Part shown: positions 7,200-64,000 of the stretch, piece by piece
Position numbering within the stretch: the first letter of the stretch is position 1
Layout: each line of letters starts with the position of its first letter
Assembly (NCBI RefSeq): GCF_964355755.1
Contig: NC_092673.1
Span: 10,168,001 to 10,232,000, forward strand
Length of the DNA: 64,000 nucleotides
Source: Antedon mediterranea
Lineage: Eukaryota; Animalia; Echinodermata
Reading direction: 5' to 3'
Notes under the pieces: generated by a model
Databases searched by the model: none
Told to the model about the DNA's origin: nothing
What the model saw: the letters and a program-made list of their open reading frames with translations, nothing else
Position numbers and translations under genes: made by a program

Positions 7200-7880
7200 A
7201 TTTACAACGCTGTATTTGACAAAGTTATGTGGTTCGATCATCGTCCAAAAATCAAAATGTCTTGGTGAGAGTGTCAAGGTTGGTGAAGGTCGGTAGCTCG
7301 ACCGATTCTGAAAGAATGAGTGTTAAACTGTGTATGTTCCAGACTAGCATGGCGAGCTAATTGTTTATAGCATTAGTGTGTGTTCTGCGGCCTTGGAGAC
7401 TACTGCTTCACTGGCTCTGAGGCATGCGAAGTAACATATTATGAACAAGGCTCTGTATAGGATGAATTCGTATTTGGATTTCATGCTACCTCGCATATGT
7501 CCAATTAGCGTTACAAGAATGTCGGAAGTGACCGGCGGTCTGATCGGTTTGGATGGAGAGTTCGTTTTTTGTTTCGCTACTCCTCTGCATAAATTGCTGA
7601 CTGCTGGATTTGCGGTAAGGTCTTCCATAAATGATACCCTGTGCACGAATGACACTGGGCTAAGGTAGTTTCGAATCGTGGAAATCGCCAGTGCATTTTT
7701 AGTCAGCTTACTTACATAGAGAACAATTGTCTGTGGAGTCGCTGGTAGCGGAAGGCTTAGTGATTTCCCGAATTGGTTAAAATGGTGCCATTTGCTTTTA
7801 TAGTTACTAGCGGTTCATTTACTTAATGAGTTCCACATTAGCTCTCGTGTGAGGATCTTGAGTTGTTTAGTGGTTCGAAG
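7200..7880 (-). pseudogene. Tyrosine recombinase of the retroelement, internally deleted
   Basis: STIRNYLS; RPPVT; YFACLRASE (box I Arg); FNTHSFRIGRAT (HxxR); GR*S in place of GRWS. Contains stops and a deletion between boxes I and II. Confidence 0.88.
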
Positions 7881-9200
7881 TAGATTGGTTGTAAGTGCTT
7901 TGGTATCTTTAGCGGTGTGCGGTTCATACTGTGCTCCTCTAGCATGGCCTCCGTTTCCTGAAAACGAGAAAGAGCGTCACATATCCTGTTTTGCTTACCA
8001 GGGATGTGCCTGGCTGTAAACTGAATGTTGTTTAGTAGTAACAAAAGGACGATAGCGCGAACCACTCTCATGACCTTTTCGTTTGATGACAATTTTTTGT
8101 TAAGCACATATACATCAGCTAGGTTATCACAGTGGAAAACTACATGGGTGTTGGCTAGCTGTTTTGCAAAAATCGAAAGCATGACATAGATGGGGTAAAT
8201 TTCGAGAACCATGATGTCGAACATTTTCCAAGTTTCCGGCCAGTGGCCTTGAATCCAGAACTTTTGGAAGGTCGCACCAAGTGCGGTTTTTGAGGCATCA
8301 GAGGAGAAATGTAAACGCTGCGAGTCAAATTTTTGTGGGGGTGAAAAATGGTAACGCCATTGTGTTTGCTAAGAAAGTCGGCCCAAATTTGGAGATCCTC
8401 CTTTGCTGAGTCAGAAAGGTGAATAGTTGAAAAGGGGTTAGTTAGACCGGCCGTTAGGGCATTAAGCCTTCTTAGGAACGCCAGTCCAGAGGGTATAACC
8501 CAGGTGGCAAATTGTAGCTTTTCAAAGAGATTGGGGGGCTCTCAATGTAGTTCAGTGAAGTTTTGAACTTTAAAGGGAGTAACGTAATTTTATTATCTCA
8601 GATGGAAGCCTGTCTTACATTTTCTGTAAATCAAGTTCAATACCCAGGAAGGAAATGGTGGTGGTGGGTGAAATTGTTTTGTGCGGTGCTAGAGGTATGC
8701 CACCGCGGTCAGCAAGCGCCTTGGATATCTTCAAGGAGTTCGCACACAGTTGGTGTGTGTCTTCAATGACGAGGATATCGTCTAATATTTTCACGTTATT
8801 GGGCTGTTTTAACTTTTTTATAAGGAAAAATTTCACTCCGTCAGAAAACTTATTGAATATTTGCCACGAAGATCCGCCGCCTTGGGGAAGCGTTTTATCG
8901 TAGTAATACTGGCCTAACCACGTGAAACCTGTGAGGTGATATTGGCATGGCCTCCGTTTCCTGAGTGGGATGTAAATGTATTAGTCTGTATGCGTCACTG
9001 GTGTCCGTCTTGGCCATGAATGCCGGGTGATTGTGTATGTCAATTATGTCTATTGCGTTGGCAATTGTTTCGTAATGAACTGTTATGCAAAACCCAGGGA
9101 TGTTGTGATTGACAGCGTTTGAGTCGTAGGGATAGGAGAGGTTGTGGAGGATACGACATTTTTCAGGTACGGAATTTCCGGAAGGTTGTTGATGATAGCT
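7838..9200 (-). pseudogene. Reverse transcriptase / RNase H of the retroelement, frameshifted
   Basis: KCRILHNLSYP; MAKTDTSDAYRLI; YDKTLPQG; ILDDILV; FLGIELD; SSDAS; LEIYPI; FHCDN; HIPGKQNRICDALSR. Confidence 0.9.
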
Positions 9201-10189: not shown

Positions 10190-12310
10190 AACCAGCATGA
10201 GTCATTTAAAGAAATGCTGTACTTAGAGGAGGGTGATAAGACACCACCGCCGTATGGGGTGATAGTAGGGGGACCAGCATGAGTCATATAACCAGCATGA
10301 GTCATATAATGAATGCTGTACTTAAGAGCATGAGTGATAAAACACCGCCGTATGTGGGGGTAGTTAATGAACCAGCATAAGTAATTATGCGGTGGTAGTA
10401 GGGAAACCAGCATGAGTCATATAATGAATGCTGTACTTAAGAGCATGAGTGATAAAAACACCGCCGTATGTGGGGTGGGTAATGAACCAGCATAAGAAAT
10501 CATGTGGTGGTAGTAGGGTTAATGAACCAGCATAAGTAATTATGTGGTGGTAATAGGGGAACCAGCATGAGTCATAATATAATGAATGAACCAGCATAAG
10601 AAATTATGTGGTGGTAGTAGTCATATAATGGTAAACCAGCATAAGAAATTATGTGGTGGCAGTAGTCATATAATGGTAAACCAGCATAAGAAATTATGTG
10701 GTGGTAGTAGTCATATAATGGTGAACCAGCATAAGAAATTATGTGGTGGTAGTAGTCATATAATGGTAAACCAGCATAAGAAATTATGTGGTGGTAGTAG
10801 TCATATAATGGTAAACCAGCATAAGAAATTATGTGGTGGTAGTAGTCATATAATGGTGAACCAGCATAAGAAATTATGTGGTGGTAGTAGTCATATAATG
10901 GTAAACCAGCATAAGAAATTATGTGGTGGTAGTAGTCATATAATGTTAAACCAGCATAAGAAATTATGTGGTGGTAGTAGTCATATAATGGTAAACCAGC
11001 ATAAGAAATTATGTGGTGGTAGTAGTCATATAATGGTGAACCAGCATAAGAAATTATGTGGTGGTAGTAGTCATATAATGGTAAACCAGCATAAGAAATT
11101 ATGTGGTGGTAGTAGTCATATAATGGTGAACCAGCATAAGAAATTATGTGGTGGTAGTAGTCATATAATGGTAAACCAGCATAAGAAATTATGTGGTGGT
11201 AGTAGTCATATAATGGTGAACCAGCATAAGAAATTATGTGGTGGTAGTAGTCATATAATGGTAAACCAGCATAAGAAATTATGTGGTGGTAGTAGTCATA
11301 TAATGGTGAACCAGCATAAGAAATTATGTGGTGGTAGTAGTCATATAATGGTAAACTAGCATAAGAAATTATGTGGTGGTAGTAGTCATATAATGGTGAA
11401 CCAGCATAAGAAATTATGTGGTGGTAGTAGTCATATAATGGTAAACCAGCATAAGAAATTATGTGGTGGTAGTATTCATATAATGGTAAACCAGCATAAG
11501 AAATTATGTGGTGGTAGTATTCATATAATGGTGAACCAGCATAAGAAATTATTTGGTGGTAGTAGTCATATAATGGTAAACCAGCATAAGAAATTATGTG
11601 GTGGTAGTATTCATATAATGGTGAACCAGCATAAGAAATTATGTGGTGGTAGTAGTGAAACCAGCATGAGTCATATAACCAGCATGAGTCATATAAAGAA
11701 TGCTGTACTTAAGGGCATGAGTGATAAAACACCGCCGTATGTGGAGGTAGGTAATGAACCAGCATAAGAAATTATGTGGTGGTAGAAGGGTTAATGAACC
11801 AGCATAAGAAATTATGTGGTGGTAGTAGTGAAACCAGCATGAGTCATAAAATGAATGCTGTACTTAAGAGCATGAGTGATAAAACACCGCCGTATGTGGG
11901 GGTAGTAAATGAACCAGCATAAGTAATTATGTGGTGGTAGTATGGGAACCAGCATGAGTCATAATGAATGCTGTACGTAAGAGGATGAGTGATAAAACAC
12001 CGGCGTATGTCGGCGTATGAACCAGCATAAGCAATTTATGTGGTGGTAGTATAGGAACCAGCATGAGTCATATAATGAATGCTGTACTTAAGAGGATGAG
12101 TGATAAAACACCGGCGTATGTCGGCGTATGAACCAGCATAAGTCAATTATGTGGTGGTAGAATAGGAACCAGCATCATATCGTCATAATGAATGCTGTAC
12201 TTGGGGAAACTAGCATGAGTCATAATGAATGCTGTACTTTGGAAACCAGCATGTGTCTTAATATAATGAATGATGTACTTAGGGAACCAGCATGAGTCAT
12301 AAGATGAATG
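10190..12310. repeat. Tandem repeat expansion inside the retroelement: 45-bp core array (10586-11655) flanked by composite longer units
   Basis: AACCAGCATAAGAAATTATGTGGTGGTAGTAGTCATATAATGGT(A/G) repeated more than 20 times, near-identical. Confidence 0.95.
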
Positions 12311-53313: not shown

Positions 53314-53350
53314 AGATATTATACATTTTTTTTTTGTTATCATGTTTTTG

Positions 53351-53364
53351 TATATAATATATAA
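53351..53364 (+). promoter_or_regulatory. Candidate TATA box for the CARD/PolB unit
   Basis: TATATAATATATAA 65-78 bp upstream of the ATG at 53429; the AT-rich context makes a chance match possible. Confidence 0.3.
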
Positions 53365-53428
53365 TTTTCTTTATTTTCATTCGTGGCTTTCAACATCGAC
53401 ATAACCTTGTCTCCTCTGTGCTGAAGGA

Positions 53429-54208
53429 ATGGAAGAAAGTTACTTTGAAGGCGAACCGTGGCTGACGAAACATCACAAACTCCTCACCACGTCCATGAAC
53501 CTGTCGGCGGTACTCGAAGCATTGGTCGTCAGAGAAATATACTTGCGGGAATTCGAGAACTTTGTACTGCGTATGGACAGAGAGAAAGGGGTTAAAGAGA
53601 ATCGGATGGCCTATTATCTCATCGACGACATTCGAAGGTATCCGAAATTGCACGCTAACGGAGCTTTCGTGGATTCTCTTAAATGCGCCGGCCACCACGA
53701 TCTTGTTGTCGCTTTGAGAAAAGGAGCGAAAACAACTTTGAACACGCCGTTCGAGAAAGATCATCCTTTTTCTTCCTTCAAGTCGGCGATGGTCCGTCTT
53801 TCGCACTACGAAATCGATCAAACATACAAGAAACGATTGCGAGAGAGGAACGTTCTTCTGAAACGCATCGACCGGTTCGCTGAAACGATAAATCTGGAGG
53901 CCACCGTCAAACAAATGGTGGTCAGAAGAATTTACAAACCCGAATACGCAAATTTCCTCCTCGACGGTGACAGACAGAGAAACGTTTACTTTTTCCTCAA
54001 CAACGTTCGGAAGCATCAAGACGAGTCCGGTTACAAAGCTTTCGTCGAGTCTCTCAAAGCAACCGGTCAACACGAACTCGCATCGACTTTGGAGAAAAAA
54101 AAATACAAAAAGAAAAAACAGTCTGTCGAAGTTCCAGACTTCGGAATTTTGTCCGATCAAAAGGCGCAATGTTCGTGTATCTGGCACGTGTCAAGTATTC
54201 CAAGATAA
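53429..54208 (+). CDS. Tandem death-fold (2x CARD-like) protein, 259 aa, intact ORF
   Basis: Two ~90-aa internal repeats ending GAFVDSLKCAGHHDLVVAL and GYKAFVESLKATGQHELASTL, typical of CARD helices 5-6; basic C-terminal tail. Confidence 0.75.
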   Translation: MEESYFEGEPWLTKHHKLLTTSMNLSAVLEALVVREIYLREFENFVLRMDREKGVKENRMAYYLIDDIRRYPKLHANGAFVDSLKCAGHHDLVVALRKGAKTTLNTPFEKDHPFSSFKSAMVRLSHYEIDQTYKKRLRERNVLLKRIDRFAETINLEATVKQMVVRRIYKPEYANFLLDGDRQRNVYFFLNNVRKHQDESGYKAFVESLKATGQHELASTLEKKKYKKKKQSVEVPDFGILSDQKAQCSCIWHVSSIPR

Positions 54209-56464
54209 ACGGAAAGTTGTACCTCTACGGCAGAGATCCGGAAGGAAACAGGCTGTCGTTGAAGACGAGGAAAGTGAAATTCACGTCGTACGTCGAAGAC
54301 GAAACGGACGGAGAATGCATCATGCGCAGAGGTGACGATCCAATTTCTTGCGCCAAGAAGTACAGGAGGCCCACGGCCGACGAAAGAAACGGCATCAAGG
54401 TCGACAACCTCTTCGGCAACCTCCCCTCGTCCGTGGGCGACCTGGACGCTCAGTGTGCGGTCGGGGTTCACGGATGCGCTTGGCACAGTTACTCCGAAGA
54501 CAAAGACGGCAACGTCGAAGGCTTGACGTACGACGAGCAGATCCACTTGGAACGACAGAACGTTCACCCGGTGCGACTGTCGGTGTTGTGCGTAGTTCTC
54601 AGGTGGGACGTGAACGGTCGAATAATTTCGGTGATGCTGTCCGACGGAAAGAGACTGCACGGCGAAAATGCGGAGATCGACACGCTGTCGGAAATCGCAA
54701 AGTCGATCGAATCTGCCGACGTGTTCGTGTATCACAGTGGTCGGGTCAAGGACAGCATCGTCGCCAGATGTCGGGTGTGCGAGGTACCCCTTGCCGTAGA
54801 CGGGTTCCCCGTGTGCTTGGACACTTCGAAACACGTACGGTCGCCGGCGGGCGGCGACAACGACTCCGTCTACGATTACGTACATCGGTTACGAATCTTG
54901 TCACGAGCTAGCGGCGAGCTAGTCGGCGAAGAAGCTAGACGACGACGTTTGCGTGCTGGAACGCTACGTGTCGGAGGTGGAAGCGAAAAAATTGGTCGAA
55001 ATCGAGACGAACTTGTCCAGAATAGTGGGAAGGTTCCCCAACGGATCGTCGACCGGCGTCCTTTCGTCGGTGCTGTGCAGAGAAGCGCAGCGTCAGCGTG
55101 TGGTGTTTCCGAGGAGCAATGCGGACCCGAAGCCCAAAGGAAGCGTCAACGAAGACGAAACGTGCAGAGGAGGCCTGGTGCTGGACACCGTGTCCGGTAT
55201 TCACAGAGACGTCGACGTGTACGACTTTCAGTTTTGCTATCCGAGGTTCATCATCGACAAAAACGTGGACAAGTCGACGGCTCTCGAAGACGGCTCTTTC
55301 GTCGACGCCGAAGTACGCGAAGGTCTGCTTCCGTCCGTCATGAAAAGACTGGTGTCGGCTAGAGAACAAAAAAACATCACTCCCCAGAACTCCGCCGTGT
55401 ACAAACAAGCGGCCAACGCATGCGTCGGATTTCTGTGCACGTCTGGCAAGAAAAGCCTTTACAACCACGTGACGGAAAAGTGCAGGGAACAACTGAACGC
55501 GCTAAAAAATTGCGCCGAAGAAAACGGTGCTCGGGTGCTGTACGGCGACACCGACTCGTTGTTTTTGGACATAGTTCCAGGCGGGAGACAGGAGCTGGAA
55601 GAGCAATTCGCCCGAGTCTTGGGCGAAAGAAGCTTTCAAAGGTTCAAACACAGGGAGACGCTTTGCGGCTTGCTGCTGACGGACAAGAAGAAAAGGTATG
55701 CGTGTCTCCATGCCGACGGGAGGGTGAGCACCACAGGGATGACGAGGCCCGGCGTCGAAAAATTCGCGTCTCGACTGGAACAGGTCATGATCGACATAGC
55801 CTTGAGGATCGGAGATAGCAATACGGCGGCCGACCGTTGCGTAAAAGAATTTTGTCGAGTCGTCAACGAACTGAAGGACGACGAAGCGATCGAGGTCCAA
55901 GGCGTTGTTCGAAAGGGCAAAAACGAGACGAACTCTCACAGATTCAAAAAGAGTTGCGCCGCCCTCGGATGCTACAGACAGACGCCTTACCACCTGAAAC
56001 ACGGAGGCGTTTCCTATCATCCGCTGTCGCATTCGTGCATCCATCCGACCGTGGAAGTCGAGCACTTGATCCGAGAGCTGAAACAATTTTGCGAACTCGA
56101 CAGAAGCAACGTTTTGAGCGTAATCGTTTGGAACGCGGAAGCAGGGGACTGCCGAACGAGCATATTGCATCGGTTGAAGGAGATCAAAGATACTTTGGAA
56201 AAGATTCCGACGCACCTGCCCCGGAAGGAGATGCAGCTCTGCGGAGGGTGGAATTTGTTCAGTGGCAGTTGCTGTTCCACGGTGAAGGTGTCGACCGCCG
56301 AAGAAGAGCGACAGGTTAGAAAAAACGAACCGGTCTTTCGAAGCGTAGATCTCGAAAACGGGGAGAGGAGATTATTCATCGTAAGATGTACAAACGCTTT
56401 GTGTTGCGACGCACACCGATTCTGGGGAAAGGCATGGAACTACACAGCAAAAGATGAAGCGTAA
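54169..56464 (+). pseudogene. polB: Family B DNA polymerase (RNA-primed type, ~765 aa) split by one frameshift near 54880-54925
   Basis: LYLYGRDPEG N-terminal motif; GGLVL; motif A DFQFCYP; GLLPSVMKRLV; motif B KQAANACVG; motif C YGDTDSLF; KKKRYAC. Confidence 0.9.
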
Positions 56465-56469
56465 AATAA

Positions 56470-56560
56470 TCCAAAAAAAATAAAAAAATAAATAAAAAAT
56501 AGTTTTAAGTCTACTTTTGAAATAAAAGAAAAAAAGAAATGGTTGAAGGAAATAAAAACA
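56470..56560 (+). terminator. A-rich spacer between convergent genes with several AATAAA polyadenylation signals
   Basis: Multiple AATAAA hexamers right after the polB stop codon. Confidence 0.45.
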
Positions 56561-56617
56561 CAAAAACCAAAAATATTGTTTAACAGTTTTTCTTGTATTC
56601 TTTTGTTTGTCAATTTG

Positions 56618-57805
56618 TCAAAGTATTGCGCATCCGCAAATCACGGTCACGTCCAGATCTTTTACGCCGAGCAGTAGATTCCCTGAAACAAACGACGAAT
56701 CGAGAAATTTGGGTGGTCGTTCGTCGATCTCGTCGTTCATGCATCGTTTCAACCACTTCCTTCTTATCTTGTTTTCGTCAACGGCGAGATCGTCTTCGAC
56801 AGGCTCTAGGTGTTCTCCTAGAAAAAGCGAAATCACCTTTTCCTTGCATTTCCTGTCCGTTTCGTGCAACACGGTCGATTCGGTTATGCAAGAAGGCAAC
56901 GTGGTCCCGGTCGCTCTCAACCGTTTCCAAACGCTTGGCAGGAACACGTCCGAGTCCGTCGTGAAAGCGGTGTGTCTTTCTTTGACCTCGGTGAGTAGCC
57001 TCAGAGGACGGACGAATTAGGCCGAGACGGAATTGAAATATTTTCCGTACGCCCACCAGTCTCTCAACGGGTTCGTTGCTTCTTCCACAACGTCCTCGAC
57101 GAATTCGAAGAATTCCACTTCCGCCAACTCGAAATTCAGGATGCTTTCCGTCGTTTGCGATCCTTCGAAAACAAGACGGGAAGATCTATCGGCCAGACCT
57201 ACCATCAGTCGTTGCGAGGTTTCCAGGGTTAAAAGGGCAGAGAAGAAGTCTGCGTTAAGCCATCCGATCTGGCGTCTGTCGTGCCCGACGAACATCGGAG
57301 GTGGGCCCAAATGCACGCCGCTTCTGCCTACGCCACCTTCCGTCTCGGCCAAATTGTCGAGGCAGGTTTCGACTGCGCAAGCGACGTTCTTCGGACACAA
57401 CGGTAGCGATCTGTTGTACGACAGACACAGATGCCTCAATATTATCATCAGAAGCTCGAAGTAAGGGTTGTCGGATCCGTAACGCCTTCCGTCGAAGTAC
57501 CACTGGAACGTTGGAGAGGGGTTGCCGCTTCTCACAAACACGCTCCAATCGTCCAGAGACTGTAGAGTTCGGGAAAGCGTCGTGTAGTCTGTGTAATCTT
57601 CGATTTTAGTCAACCAGAGACGACCGGTCAGATAACGCCTTCCGTAATCGTTGCCCTCCTCACCGCCACCGTCGTCGTCGTAGTCGTCGTAGTCGTACGA
57701 CTTGAAATGTCTAGGGTCGACTGTCATTATCTTTGACCACCTGACCTGCACGGCAGGTTGAGGCAATCCCAACTTCAACACCGGTCTCTCTTTGAACAAG
57801 TCCAT
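56618..57805 (-). pseudogene. BRO1/BROX-like domain protein (~395 aa) with one in-frame TAA at 57019-57017
   Basis: ORFs 57017..57880 and 56618..56947 share a frame and are separated by a single stop; likely start MDLFKE at 57805. PTFQWYFDGRRYGSDNPYFELLMII resembles the Bro1 F-x-W...D-x-x-FE motif. Confidence 0.5.
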
Positions 57806-57911
57806 AAGAAAGATTCTTGTGAAACATAACAACAACAACAACAACAACAACAACAATAAAAAAATAAATAAAAAACACATATATGTATATAAATTTCAAT
57901 TTCCTTTTATT

Positions 57912-58139
57912 TCAAACGACCATCATTTTCTTAAATTTAGAAGATAAAGTATTTTCACTTTCTGCTTTGCAATCTATCAATCTCTCTATTTTGTCGATCA
58001 CTTCGCATAAGTCTTTTTTGTTTTTTTCATCCACATCGCCGTCGTTGCCACTGTGTTGCTTTTTTTTTTTAAGGCGTAGCACTTTCAGAACCCTTTCCAC
58101 GTGGAAGACCGGCATTTCGATGTATATGTTTGTGCTCAT
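57912..58139 (-). CDS. Small basic/coiled-coil hypothetical protein, 75 aa
   Basis: ATG in good Kozak context; GC-richer core between AT-rich spacers; KKKK possible NLS. Confidence 0.45.
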   Translation of the reverse strand: MSTNIYIEMPVFHVERVLKVLRLKKKKQHSGNDGDVDEKNKKDLCEVIDKIERLIDCKAESENTLSSKFKKMMVV

Positions 58140-58613
58140 TCTTGTGTTGTTTTTTTTCCACTTTCTTTTCTCCTTTTCTGTGAATTTTGTAAATATTATT
58201 CTTTTCTTCCAAGTCTATTTCTGTATTAATATACTGTAAAATGTTACTATTTAATCAGTTATAGTTGGTTTTCTAAAATGTTTTTTTTTTTGCCCCTGCC
58301 TATTTCGAGTCGTTTTTCTCCGTCTGGAAAGAATCGCCAGCTTTTTCGGCATGATTCCTTAGTCCGTTATTACTTGTAAAACAATCTTTCTTCTTTTTTT
58401 TTTCTTTTCGGACTCTTCTTCGTCCACGACCTCGACAGGTTCAGCAACATTTCCAACGTTCTGAAAGTTCTGAAAGGCCTTGATCGGTCGTCTTCTCATC
58501 TACAAAGAAGAGTTTCTAAAGTCCAAATACTTGATCTTAATGTTTTTCACAGGTAAGAACTCATCGGGAGAATCTGATATTACAAAAAAAAAAAAAAAAA
58601 AAAAAAAATTTTT

Positions 58614-59365
58614 TCACTTTGTGACGTACCGTTTTCGTTTGCAACCGGACCTTTTGCAGCAGATCGGACGGTTCGACGGACTTATCTCCAGCAGTGTTCG
58701 ATCGTTCAACGGTTCGCCACAATCCAGCTCCTCTGCAATGCACTTTCGGGACAGTTCTGAATCGAATTTGTCGACGTGCCTTAATATCATGTCGAGGAAC
58801 GTGCGACCGGTTTGCTAGAGAGAAGCGACCGTCTGAAACTGAGTGTTGCAGCAAAGCGAAGGAGAAAACAACTGGAACTTTCTCGCTCGTCCGTCCACGT
58901 GGTACGGGATGGTGAACTTGACCGACGGAAACAGATCGTTGCTGTCGACCGTCAAAGATTCTAAAAGCTTAAGTCGTTCGACTACGTCCAGCACGCCGTA
59001 CATCCTACCTGCATGGTTCAGGTTGTTTGTCGAAATGTGCATAGGTACGCTCTTGTATTTTCTCTTATCGCCTGTTGCAGTTGGTAGTTGAGCGAAGTTT
59101 TCGTTCTCACGTTGAAGTTACCCCTCGTCGTGATGTTCGTCTATCCTGTGGAAACGAAATACAGCGCGGTCGATCCTCTTTTCAGAGGCGATTGAAATTC
59201 TATCATGTCGTCTTGCAATTTCGTGCCCCTCATGTGGATGGATTGCGCCGTCTCGCGCGTGTCGTACGGATATCGATGCACGATGTTTTGCGAAGACACC
59301 ACGTTCACCAGGAAGAAGTTCATCGACGCTCTGTTGCAACTGGATTGAACGGTTGTGTACGTCAT
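58614..59365 (-). pseudogene. Divergent TATA-binding-protein-like gene (two stops, one frameshift)
   Basis: Reconstructed LVNVVSSQNI...STALYFVSTG*TNIT...ISTNNLNHAG...NDLFPSVKF...KFQLFS...TFLDMIL is collinear with both TBP saddle repeats. Confidence 0.65.
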
Positions 59366-60057
59366 GATTGTTTCGTATTTTTCCTCGCCGTCTGTTGCAA
59401 TCGGGGTGGTTTTTTCACACCTTTTTTCAGAACCTGGATCCTCCGGATGCTGTTGTCCACCTTCACCAGCACGTCTCCGTTGGAGGTGCGTTGATGTTCC
59501 GAAAACATGGAGGCCAGAGACTGACGTTCCCGGTCGTTGTACGTGGCAAACACGACCGTTTCTGCGAATAACGACAGCAGATCGAGCGCCGATGTGAGGA
59601 ACGACATCGGCAGATCGGGAGCGTCGACCATGAGCTCCACGTGATCGACAAAGGTGGTTTTCGCCGCTTGTCCTTTTTCGTTCTGTAACCGTCGAACCTT
59701 AAAGTCTCCCACCACGATGCCCTCTTCTCTGTAGAGTAAGTGAACAAGGTTTTTCGTGGAAAACACCACCGCCAAACCGTCAAACGACTCGACTCTGGTC
59801 CTATGATCGCCTTAGTAGACGACGTCATCGACGTAAAACTTTCTCTTCTCCGGAATCGGGTTCAGGTTGTTCCTCAGCCGGTTCGTGAACCGTTCGCCGA
59901 GCACGTTCCGGAACCGATCCAACAAGGAAACGGGATCGGACGGCTTCGAGGAGAGAGCTTTGCAGATCCTCGGATCCGAGTTGATGTACGTGTACCAGAA
60001 CGTCGCCTCCTGTTCCGTCAGGCCGCCTCTCAGTTCCACCAGCTGCCGACAAAACAT
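59362..60057 (-). pseudogene. Hypothetical protein (~231 aa) with one in-frame stop at 59814-59812
   Basis: ORFs 59812..60057 and 59362..59775 are in the same frame; its stop overlaps the TBP-like start (ATGA). Confidence 0.6.
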
Positions 60058-60885
60058 TCAATTCACCAGGGAAAAAAAGTCATGCGCCCTCTATCGGTTG
60101 CTACCTTCAATATCTGCTCAGCGAAGCGTGCATAGTAACCGGAAGTGATGTTTTTTTCAAAACATTATTTCCGTAATCTTTAATCAACGAATGAGAAGCC
60201 TTCAAATTGTTTTTCTCATGAATAATTCATATTTAGTTGAAGATAAGGTATGGAAGAACCATGTGACGATCTCTTTTAAACGAAACGGCCATTTTAAGAC
60301 AGTCTAGTAAACCAACGATTTCGAGAGTAAGTTTTTAGATATTTAACAGTTTTTGAGGATCGTTTTTTTGTGTAATTTTGCACGCATATAAAATCAAAAC
60401 CTAATTTTTTAAGAAGTAAATGCAAACAAATATAATAACTATATACTATTTATATTTGTTACAAAAAAAATCACGCTGGTGTTATGTCCCATTTTTTTTT
60501 AAATGAAGCTGAAAATTGGTATATAATCCACGTGGTTAGTATTTCGGCCTAGCACTCTATATCACATGTCTAGGCCTAAACATAGGGCAAATCCAGCAGC
60601 AATGTAAATACGAAGTTCAAGATCAATAAAGAGACTTTGTATAAATATTAACATAATGTTATTATTGTAATTTTTATGCAATAATAATAAAAACATGTTA
60701 TATATAGGCCTTTTAGTCATAAACCATTATTATTACAATTATTATAGCCTACTAACTAAGATAATAGACCTCCAGGCCTAACCTAGTTAGACAATTATGT
60801 AGTAGGTATATTATTAATATAGTATAGACAATATAAAAAGGTTACTGTTTTGATCTGAGATTTTCACTAATTTTTGCCTACTATT

Positions 60886-63538
60886 TTATTTAAATTTCAG
60901 CTGCTTTCGGCTTTTTGGGTGTTCGACCTCCTTGATTATTTCAGGGACTGTGGACATGGTATGCGCTTTCATAATAGACGTCGTTCTTGAATTTTCATTA
61001 CGCATACCCCAAAATGACCGTTTCCTTCTGTTTATTGAGGCATGTATGGACTCTCCTCCCTGCTCTCCTAGCAGTCCTAACCCAACTCCCCACTTCTTAA
61101 TTGATGGCAGCACATGATCCTCAAGTAAATGGAGCTTAGGTGATATTCTCTCATTGTATTGGCGAAAGTGGTCCATAAAAGCCATTATTTTTTTCATCTG
61201 TATAAATATAAACGCAAATTATTTTAAATATAATTGATTACTTTTGTTCTTGTTCCAAAATTTTACAACTTGTAAAAAAATCTAGTTGATACATCTATAG
61301 TGGTTTGAAATAAAGAAAAATCATACCAATTGATTGAATGTCATCGGTTGTTAACACCCGGCAATGGTCAATACTGTTGTGTACTGCTGAATATTTAGAG
61401 AGTAAGTTTATGTATTTTACTTCAATCTCTGCTGCCTTCGCCATTATCAGTTGTCCCTTACTAATTGAAAAGAGATCTGCCTCTATACTGACCACTCTAG
61501 AAATGTTCTTGCATAGATCATCTATGACGTCAGACTTTTATTTAAAAAAAATTATAATACAGTATTGTAATAGTAGTAGTAATGTAAATAAGGATCATGT
61601 ATATAAAGAGGCCTACTACTATTATGTATTAGAATTAGAATACATAATTCTACATACAGTTAATGTGCATACCTTTAGTGCCTTGTGCACATGATTGCCA
61701 TTAAAAGATTTCCCATGAAATGGCTGTCGTTTAATACCATGATAATGGAGTGTCTGGTCCATAGATGCTACTATTGGACCAGTCCCAAACCTCAGTTGTA
61801 CGTCCATTTGCCTTTCCTATAGAAAAATACTTATGCAGGTAATTATGTTTGCTTTCATAGGTACAGAATAACCATGTGAGGTTCTAAGGCATCGATTTTT
61901 AGGGTAAGTAACAAGTAAAAACAAACAATATAATTATGAATGAAATATTGACGTACTGTTTCTGTCAACTCATCTTGAAGCTTTACTAGTTCATGCAATT
62001 GTTTAGACATTTTTGCCTTAGCATCCCCACTTTGATTTTTTAAATACAATAAAGGGATATCGTCTTCTATTTTCTCAATTTGTAGTAAAAGTTGATCTTT
62101 TTCTCTTGCCAATTCTGGAATTAAAAACAATTTAATTTATTTTTATTTATTTATTGAATTTTCTGCCATATACAATACAACGAAGACAAAACAAATATAA
62201 AAAGCAAGGAAAGACAACAAATAAAAACGAAAGGAGAGAATAAATAAATTATACCTTCTTGCTTCATAGCCACTGCCTTCACTAACTTATCAAACTTTGA
62301 TTTTGCTTGATCATCATCATAATCATCTTCTTCTGTACGATTTTTTCTTTTCATCAATATAGCAACATCCATTTTGTGGCATTCGCTTTCCAGCATCTCA
62401 TACAGTTTTTTGAATATCCCTAAAGAGATATGGAGGGTAGGGACGGACACCTGTAAAGATAATTATAAAAAAATACTTACGACATTTAAGATTATTTACT
62501 TGGTATTTAGAGTACAAGATAAAAATTACTTACTTGCTCAATTTCAATATCAATCATAGGCTCCCATATTACACTAAGTGATACATTCTTGGACATTTCC
62601 TTTTTCCCTCCATGTTCCTCAAATGCCTTTAAGTTTTCAGCCAATGACCTCAGTGTCCTACACTCTCCATTAATAGACTTTGTTTGCTGTTCCTCTTTGG
62701 ATTTTTTACAAAATAGGCAACAATACCGGCCTAAAACAAATATAATTTACTGTTAATATTATTTCACATTCTATTTTTTGTTTTGATAGAAAAAACATGT
62801 ATTGTTTTTTTATATTATGTTTTTTTACTACTTACAGTTTGGTCCATTGATTCCGTAGATTTTGATTAGAAAATCATAGTCACCAAAACAAAACATTCGC
62901 AGATTATACTCTCTGTGAAAGAAAAAAAATCCACATTTATAGATAAAGATAAGTGTATTTGTTACTCTGTTGTAATACATAGTATTTTATCCATGATAAA
63001 TGAAACAACATAACTACCTCCACTGTAGACCATTCAGTCCCATAACTTGCTCCGTCACTCTTGGTAATGTTTGCGACAAGTTATAGACGCTGTCCTTTGC
63101 ATGGAACATCAATACTACAACCACATTTCTGACTGCATTCGGATCAGCAACACTTACAATTTGTATTTCTGCCTTAAAACTCTCACCACCATGATCTCCG
63201 CCAAACTTCAGCCATATCTCATTGCCGTTGTATATTTTAAGTTTATTTTGCCTGTAAAATATAATAACATCGTTATTTTTTTTTGACAGGAACATACAAA
63301 ATGTGTGTACAGAATTGAGAAGATAAAATTATAAACTTACTGGCGGTACTCATCAAGGTAATTAAAAACCAAAGCCTTTATATCTGGTATGTGAACCACA
63401 GCTACCTCTTTCAAACTGAGACCTTCGTGCCGACTGGAATTAAACAACAGTAGCTCATTTTTTGATTTCAACTCGCAAAGCAGTTCCTTCTGGCATTCTC
63501 TCATCCTCTTCTCTGAAGGTATTAGTCCTGGAACATAC
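60886..63538 (-). CDS. Multi-exon Chapaev/CMC-like DDE transposase (RAG1/Transib-related fold); 5' part not resolved
   Basis: GGDHGGESFK; FGDYDFL; CCLFC; PTLHISLG; FNGNH; KLHLLEDH; GEQGGESIH. GT-AG exons approx. 63538-63341, 63251-63018, 62912-62836, 62730-62534, 62450-62255, 62114-61957, 61816-61673, 61534-61327 and 61197-60886; possible 1-bp homopolymer frameshift at the start of the last exon. Confidence 0.8.
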
Positions 63539-64000
63539 CTGAAAGTATAATAATATACTGTATATTTACAGTACTGTACTGTATATAATTGTTTATTCAT
63601 ATAAATACAGTAGGTATTACTTAAAGCTCAGGTACAGGCATGAATTTTAAATACAATATCTGGTTAATTGTACATAAATCAAATATTAGTAACAGAAATC
63701 AAGACGAAAAAACATGAATTTCCCTTAATATGGTCAAATACAAAATTTTGAAAAATTCTGCCATAAAAACCTGGAAGACTTTTTTTTCAGTAGTTAGGTA
63801 GTTTAACCTAATGTAATAACATATCTGGTGACTCCCTAGAAGGTGAAAAAAGATGGTGGATATACGGTGGATAATTTTTGCTATAGCATGAAAATAAAAA
63901 TCTGAAGTTGATTAAAAATACCAGAAATGTAAAATTCAAGTTATATTACCTATATTTAGTCATCTGATAACATTTTTTACCACACCGTTTATTTTTCATA

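Follow-up and report, generated by a model that had tools for sequence, protein, structure and literature searches.

A CpG-rich island in the Antedon mediterranea genome, probably a decayed copy of a virus-like element with a divergent family B DNA polymerase

Introduction

Endogenous large DNA viruses are already known from crustaceans, wasps and fish, and the question raised here is whether a compact, CpG-rich island of genes in the genome of the echinoderm Antedon mediterranea belongs with them, and if so what kind of element it is. The island lies in a 64,000-nucleotide stretch of contig NC_092673.1 (assembly GCF_964355755.1, positions 10,168,001 to 10,232,000), the whole of which is referred to below as the window. 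A first-pass annotation, made from the letters alone, had read the island as an endogenous fragment of an unrecognized large DNA virus that combines two CARD units, a DNA polymerase of family B (PolB), a BRO1-like protein and a protein resembling the TATA-binding protein (TBP).

We think it probable that the island represents one copy, cut short and decayed, of a longer element with a divergent PolB. That element is likely a large double-stranded DNA (dsDNA) virus of an unnamed lineage, for which germline integration in a marine invertebrate is likely. The basis for this is the foreign composition of the island, its intron-free and overlapping genes, the long branch that its PolB shares with a small clade of relatives, and the presence of near-identical sequence in three species. 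The island is a real virus-like endogenous element of a lineage that has apparently not been described, and both its proviral state and the identity of its PolB are well supported. The earlier proposal of a foreign virus-like cassette in an animal genome is supported as well. For the combination of genes, said at the outset to match no named family, no such family was found. A literature search, with supplements and most subscription papers outside its reach, gave no description of the PolB clade or of such elements in crinoids, and the available portions of two invertebrate virome papers mention nothing similar (PMC11097642; PMC6950620).

The island and its genes

In a composition scan the island occupies 53351-60140, with a GC content of 0.484 and an observed/expected (o/e) CpG ratio of 1.44, against 0.306 and 0.68 in the left flank and 0.313 and 0.57 in the right (roughly 0.31 and 0.6 overall), which bears out the CpG-rich island in AT-rich surroundings of the first-pass annotation. 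Its left end is approximate and adjoins a 260-bp tandem array that finishes at 53314. On the right, element sequence stops at 60052, where contigs assembled from two public sequencing runs (X5 and X6) depart from the window sequence, and the feature is therefore placed at 53351..60052 with no strand assigned. The span given previously, 53400..60135, was right about the location of the island but ran too far to the right, since 60054-60097 is a host repeat.

Five clear genes are present, all intron-free and with a GC content at third codon positions (GC3) of 0.54-0.73. The sixth gene that had been counted, a 75-amino-acid open reading frame (ORF) on the minus strand (57912..58139, ATG to stop), is doubtful, as its GC3 of 0.47 is lower than that of the other ORFs and it has no family match under E 0.08. 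Two plus-strand genes face convergently toward the minus-strand genes, as the ORF map confirms for the arrangement first described, and the packing is tight: the first ORF overlaps the start of the PolB gene by 40 nt, and the ATG of the TBP-like gene (58614..59365) overlaps the stop of the ORF upstream. Four of the five clear genes (PolB, a 395-codon gene, the TBP-like gene and an orphan) are broken in the window copy. There is no second copy of the island within the 64-kb window and no Rfam match in it, and this truncated copy has no terminal inverted repeat (TIR) or clear terminal repeat at its ends and no integrase or capsid protein among its genes.

A short polymerase on a long branch

The gene that identifies the element is that for a short PolB (54169..56464, plus strand), which is interrupted by a frameshift near 54900-54930 and carries motifs A, B and C (YGDTDS) and a Cys-rich C-terminal motif that is reminiscent of CysB in eukaryotic Pol delta/zeta. 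Its C-terminal piece matches PF00136 in Pfam (E 1.5e-14) and solved archaeal B-family polymerases (E 9.7e-13), and the members of its clade that were scanned match PF00136 only and not PF03175, the family of the protein-primed enzymes. Judged by its sequence, an RNA-primed-type polymerase different from that of Polintons and adintoviruses is supported, in keeping with the earlier statement that it is not protein-primed, and membership of the element in the Polinton/adintovirus group was rejected on the same ground. The exonuclease domain PF03104 was undetected in the window pieces and in the relatives P0001, P0096, P0105 and P0119, although other matches of similar length have one, and proofreading has therefore likely been lost.

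Close relatives are few. A search of a 5.8-billion-sequence collection gave 92 PolB matches, two of them set apart and the remaining 90 at E 1.9e-11 or weaker. P0001 (738 aa, from an ENA contig of 5,551 bp, uninterrupted) is 44% identical over 97% of the PolB C-terminal piece, and XP_033123481.1 of the crinoid (feather star) Anneissia japonica is 48% identical to the same piece. Anneissia has five near-identical PolB proteins in RefSeq, named Pol delta-like or Pol II-like by NCBI, and one of them (XP_033122522.1) is encoded on a 128-kb scaffold. In an exhaustive HMMER search of 1.84 billion representatives with P0001, two of 1333 matches were at E <= 1e-30 and the next at 1.7e-20 or weaker. 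Two weaker matches, P0105 and P0119, nevertheless align over their whole length and have the C-terminal Cys-rich motif in common with the window PolB. P0105 is encoded on JAAUXV010208390.1 (L001), a contig considered further below.

The window PolB, P0001, the Anneissia proteins, P0105 and P0119 (738-841 aa) form a clade in both a FastTree analysis (support 92) of 140 rows, out of 154 chosen, after 14 without motif anchors were dropped and three in four generic hits of the first search had been removed beforehand, and an IQ-TREE analysis (support 85) of 42 hand-picked rows. In both trees the clade sits on a long branch and is not a short-branch sister of the rows that we take, by eye since rows are unlabelled, to be Pol delta- and alpha-like; hence the short-branch nesting among host polymerases that would speak for a host gene was not seen. 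The rows carry no virus labels, and the trees show the isolation of the clade and not its affiliation. P0246 (814 aa), a further long-branch PolB with a Cys-rich tail, is a weak addition to the clade in each tree (support 88 and 80), which may be long-branch attraction.

This isolation bears on whether the element is an endogenous virus of a named group that has merely diverged, whether from Naldaviricetes (nimavirus-like), from Mirusviricota or another herpes-like lineage, or from Nucleocytoviricota. Such an origin would fit trees that had no labelled viral references, and scans of IMG/VR detect close relatives only. The same scans, made with proteins of the element or of L001, confirmed no relative, although they need near-exact peptides and so do not imply absence. 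Against it, no PolB cluster links the clade to the generic, largely archaeal-type B-family matches among the 1.84 billion representatives, and the clade enzymes are short: the PolB of white spot syndrome virus (WSSV), with some 2,200-2,300 aa, is far longer, and those of herpesviruses and most giant viruses are also longer. We regard a divergent member of a named group as unlikely, while giving it more weight than the other alternatives below.

Other copies and the host junctions

Words of the island occur in 11 public runs from six studies and four organisms, X9, X10 and X11 having small shares of them. No run is listed as RNA; X5 may be RNA. Contigs from X1 and X5 (organism A), X6 (organism B) and X9 (organism C) were compared with 58625-60880 of the window (~2.3 kb); X9 gave short pieces, while X1, X5 and X6 are well covered by long contigs, and these are about 98-99% identical to the window island (1-2% other letters). 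The window stop at 58815-58817 and the frameshift near 59064 differ in all four runs, the stops at 59141-59143 and 59812-59814 differ in the three runs that cover them, and these three stops and the frameshift appear to be private to the window copy. Past 60052 the X5 and X6 contigs continue into a common other sequence, in X6 for 1608 letters. Since the runs differ from the window at these breaks and two of them continue past 60052, the window copy is a decayed and cut-short example of a longer element, which is probably multi-copy. The first-pass annotation had missed that this is a single truncated and decayed copy of an element whose other copies are unbroken at the compared sites. Contig depth, which is not copy number, was 177-187 on the island against 74 on the flank in X1, 40 against ~3 in X5 and 39 against 18 in X6.

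Two further observations concern these contigs. At 59187-59220 a second contig in both X1 and X5, with a loose end at 59187, matches the window and then diverges, so that organism A may hold another lineage of the element that is more distant. At 59372-59373 a stretch present in all four runs is absent from the window copy.

At the right junction, 60054..60097 (no strand assigned) is matched by separate, unrelated contigs with differing upstream sequences and at a depth of up to 608 in X1, and it is therefore a short host repeat. A single X1 contig covers 60023-60880, and so, for the two host-island junctions of the first-pass annotation, the right one is present in a contig of one run. In one X1 contig the 19-bp satellite unit described below also precedes the 60054-60097 repeat.

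These data bear most directly on the possibility that DNA of a symbiont, a parasite or a free virus was misassembled onto host repeats, or that the PolB is a fast-evolving host Pol delta paralogue. Repeats do adjoin both ends of the island, and four of the five Anneissia proteins are named 'DNA polymerase delta catalytic subunit-like' by NCBI. However, island and right flank are joined in the X1 contig, private stops and a frameshift are as in a decaying chromosomal copy, one Anneissia copy sits on the 128-kb scaffold, and the PolB is intron-free, has no detected exonuclease domain and is no short-branch sister of the Pol delta- or alpha-like rows. Its separate, long-branch clade and the lack of a detected exonuclease domain speak against identity with host DNA polymerase delta, and misassembly and paralogy together are, in our judgement, very improbable.

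A distant relative

Of the 37.9 kb of L001, 17.5 kb were analyzed. Here the PolB gene stands head-to-head with that for a 1467-aa AAA/MCM-like P-loop protein, whose best weak scores are to AAA_5 (E 0.00018) and MCM (E 0.011), and their neighbors include a gene for a deoxynucleoside kinase (E 1.4e-21), one that is C1q-like (E 0.025) and a number of orphans, the genes being compact with viral-type packing. The PolB is followed directly by a stretch of lower GC, which we take to be a decayed fragment of a long interspersed nuclear element (LINE), as expected for a provirus in an animal genome. The C1q match belongs to one of two adjacent small and apparently secreted proteins (L001:3853-4847, minus strand), which are possible TNF/C1q-type immune mimics. 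A 757-aa orphan (L001:14452-16725, plus strand) has an N-terminus that looks BTB/BACK-like by eye and no family match.

No structural gene was seen in the 17.5 kb of L001 or in the window, and this is what would be predicted for a mobile element that replicates itself without a capsid, whether plasmid-like or a large DNA transposon, and that has both an RNA-primed-type PolB of its own and CARD cargo. Open frames in multiple copies at ~98-99% identity across species are also like an active transposon, and a DUF1280 transposase lies 0.8 kb rightward. On the other hand, the island ends without TIRs, in X5 and X6 the element runs into other sequence and not into the transposase flank, and a deoxynucleoside kinase with a dedicated helicase, as in L001, is typical of large DNA viruses. 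This explanation is thus an improbable one, less so than misassembly but behind a divergent member of a named viral group.

The remaining genes of the island

The first gene, an uninterrupted 259-aa ORF (53429..54208, plus strand), contains two tandem CARD-like (death-fold) repeats. The duplicated helical unit of ~90 aa (37% identity, score 134) was matched by none of 2000 shuffles, and the tandem repeat is a genuine duplication at the sequence level. The Pfam family CARD_2 gave E 0.003 and 18 bits against a cut-off of 28.2, and a two-repeat profile matched an MDA5 chain at E 0.61 (positions 11-90). The units are likely CARDs; hence, of the double CARD originally proposed, the doubling is firm and the family assignment stays below the cut-off.

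The 395-codon gene (56618..57805, minus strand) is broken by a premature stop at 57017-57019, and its function is unassigned. Uninterrupted, full-length relatives are P0098 (45%), P0099 (40%) and P0100 (two hits among 2876 candidates). None of the three has a Pfam hit at E <= 10, a four-sequence profile of the family found no chain of BRO1 (PF03097) in the PDB, and an AlphaFold2 (AF2) model has a pLDDT of 31, too low for fold support. One JGI and one GTDB scan, both of which need near-exact peptides, gave no relative of this family. This is the gene that the first-pass annotation called 'BRO1-like', and an FxW...FEL pattern in it is reminiscent of BROX/ALIX.

The TBP-like gene (58614..59365, minus strand, ~250 codons) has stops at 58815-58817 and 59141-59143 and the frameshift near 59064. 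Its uninterrupted relatives P0101 and P0102 are 64-75% identical (24 candidates gave one hit, and its cluster a further member), and by eye both halves of the protein follow the TBP repeat pattern. Neither P0101 nor P0102 matched PF00352 in Pfam. With hhalign the family aligned to six TBPs at E 0.093 over 156 colinear columns, and to a reference set of 33 (32 of archaea, the other of a giant-virus metagenome-assembled genome) at E 0.18, where nine of 100 column shuffles scored as high. HMMER gave -1.2 bits, reached by 185 of 1000 shuffles, a glocal profile gave z 1.19, and a pairwise test was likewise within the shuffle range. An internal repeat was undetected in the protein, and at a pLDDT of 32 its AF2 model was too poor for fold searches to be informative. 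That the gene encodes a TBP is a plausible lead from its motifs. Since neither the TBP nor the BRO1 fold was confirmed by any profile or structure test, the 'transcription' and 'membrane scission/enveloped' modules of the first-pass annotation therefore come down to motif resemblance. P0100 and P0101 are each encoded on a 19,013-bp contig in ENA. The two records probably represent a single contig, which suggests that the 395-codon and TBP-like genes remain linked in a relative.

The last gene (59362..60052, minus strand, GC3 0.69) is an orphan that is 5'-truncated by the host repeat and has a premature stop at 59812-59814. Searches of Pfam, NCBIfam, PHROGs and the PDB gave it no significant match. 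A GNAT-like reading of this gene, a motif impression, was dropped, as family and PDB searches did not support it.

Flanking DNA

The window outside the island is repeat-rich DNA of animal type with tandem arrays of 87-bp, 19-bp (27 kb long), 186-bp and 260-bp units. To the right, 0.8 kb from the island, is a host DNA transposase gene in pieces that are likely exons (60886..63630, minus strand), with DUF1280 (PF06918) at E 9e-13 on 63017-63328. It probably contains introns, its motifs are reminiscent of RAG1/Transib/Chapaev-type enzymes, and it is assigned here to the host flank and not to the element. The 27-kb satellite (21616-49025) has a purine-rich 19-bp unit in 1368 copies. A 45-bp tandem repeat at 10577-11656 (24 copies, 96% matches) has long open frames on both strands, and an ORF piece at 7838-8368 (minus strand) resembles DIRS-type retrotransposons in their RNase H region.

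Discussion

If the island derives from a virus, that virus would persist as several chromosomal copies with open frames, inherited vertically in the manner of endogenous nimaviruses or Teratorn, and single copies such as that in the window would be cut by host repeats and then decay. Replication of the viral genome would start from RNA primers and be the work of this PolB, likely with no proofreading and likely with the help of an MCM-like helicase such as that beside the distant relative in L001. The tandem CARD protein would be a decoy for CARD-based innate-immune or caspase signaling, the TBP-like protein would bring host RNA polymerase II to viral promoters, and a part for the 395-codon gene in BRO1-type ESCRT recruitment would be a motif-based guess. 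A bolder form of this proposal, which we put forward tentatively and hold to be somewhat less likely to be true than false, is that large DNA viruses of animals include an unnamed lineage, at the rank of a family or an order, whose proviruses are intact and multi-copy in the genomes of crinoids and further marine invertebrates. Such viruses would have a minimal, proofreading-deficient and Cys-tailed PolB, an MCM-like helicase, a highly divergent TBP of their own, a budding factor with a BRO1 fold and tandem-CARD immune decoys.

Several points weigh against a viral origin or against details of it. Capsid, packaging, envelope, integrase and RNA polymerase genes were seen neither in the window nor in the 17.5 of 37.9 kb of L001, and with no structural gene in view the word 'virus' therefore rests on gene content and packing. 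The CARD match is below its cut-off, the TBP identity has no statistical support, and neither profile, PDB nor fold searches supported BRO1. L001 and the window share PolB alone, the link between them being a support of 85-92 between long branches, and the deeper placement of the clade differs by tree, within a set with eukaryote-like polymerases in one and apart in the other. Some of the window breaks may be assembly errors, and contig depth gives only a hint that the element is multi-copy. The X1 contig across the junction reaches no more than 31 letters into the island, and X1 is possibly the source sample.

The PolB clade stands isolated among the 1.84 billion representatives, yet open-frame copies occur in more than one species. 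Existing records should therefore allow a complete natural genome to be read, together with its capsid type, and the PolB tree of DNA viruses would thereby gain a branch that infects animals. The names of five RefSeq proteins, now 'Pol delta-like' or 'Pol II-like', would be corrected, and a viral tandem-CARD protein is a possible probe for invertebrate CARD signaling.

Comparison with known systems

Polintons, Mavericks and adintoviruses, which have a protein-primed PolB (PF03175), an integrase and TIRs, resemble the element as self-replicating, virus-like elements common in invertebrate genomes, and differ in that its clade has PF00136 only and in that no TIR was found at the island ends. Teratorn, a herpesvirus fused to piggyBac in fish, is likewise a large DNA virus in an endogenous state; it has open frames and behaves as a multi-copy genomic parasite. 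The herpes terminase and capsid are unseen here, and the transposase beside the island may be unconnected with the element.

TBP occurs in Mirusviricota and Nucleocytoviricota, and these groups share with the element an RNA-primed-type PolB, a deoxynucleoside kinase (in L001) and possibly TBP. They differ in their RNA polymerase subunit, major capsid protein, A32 and D5, all unseen in the window fragment, where HK97 capsid, terminase, portal, double jelly-roll capsid and VLTF3 were also not found, and the PolB of the element is shorter, has no detected exonuclease domain and gave no IMG/VR relative. According to the available part of one mirusvirus host survey, metazoan assemblies were excluded from it (PMC10827195).

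Nimaviruses differ from the element in their crustacean hosts, in a much longer PolB, and in pif genes and an integrase that are unseen in the window fragment, and the likeness between the two is one of description. That likeness speaks in favor of a divergent member of a named group. In the available portion of Kawato et al. (PMC10871703), TBP (wsv303), DNA polymerase (wsv514) and a helicase (wsv447) are core genes of Nimaviridae, so that PolB with TBP, which the first-pass annotation, missing nimaviruses, took to point to Nucleocytoviricota and Mirusviricota, is not diagnostic of these. As described there, endogenous nimaviruses of crustaceans are multi-copy elements with 22-477 copies per haploid genome, and thus, like the element proposed here, large dsDNA viruses with a TBP, PolB and helicase core that are present in many near-identical chromosomal copies among the host repeats of an invertebrate (PMC10871703).

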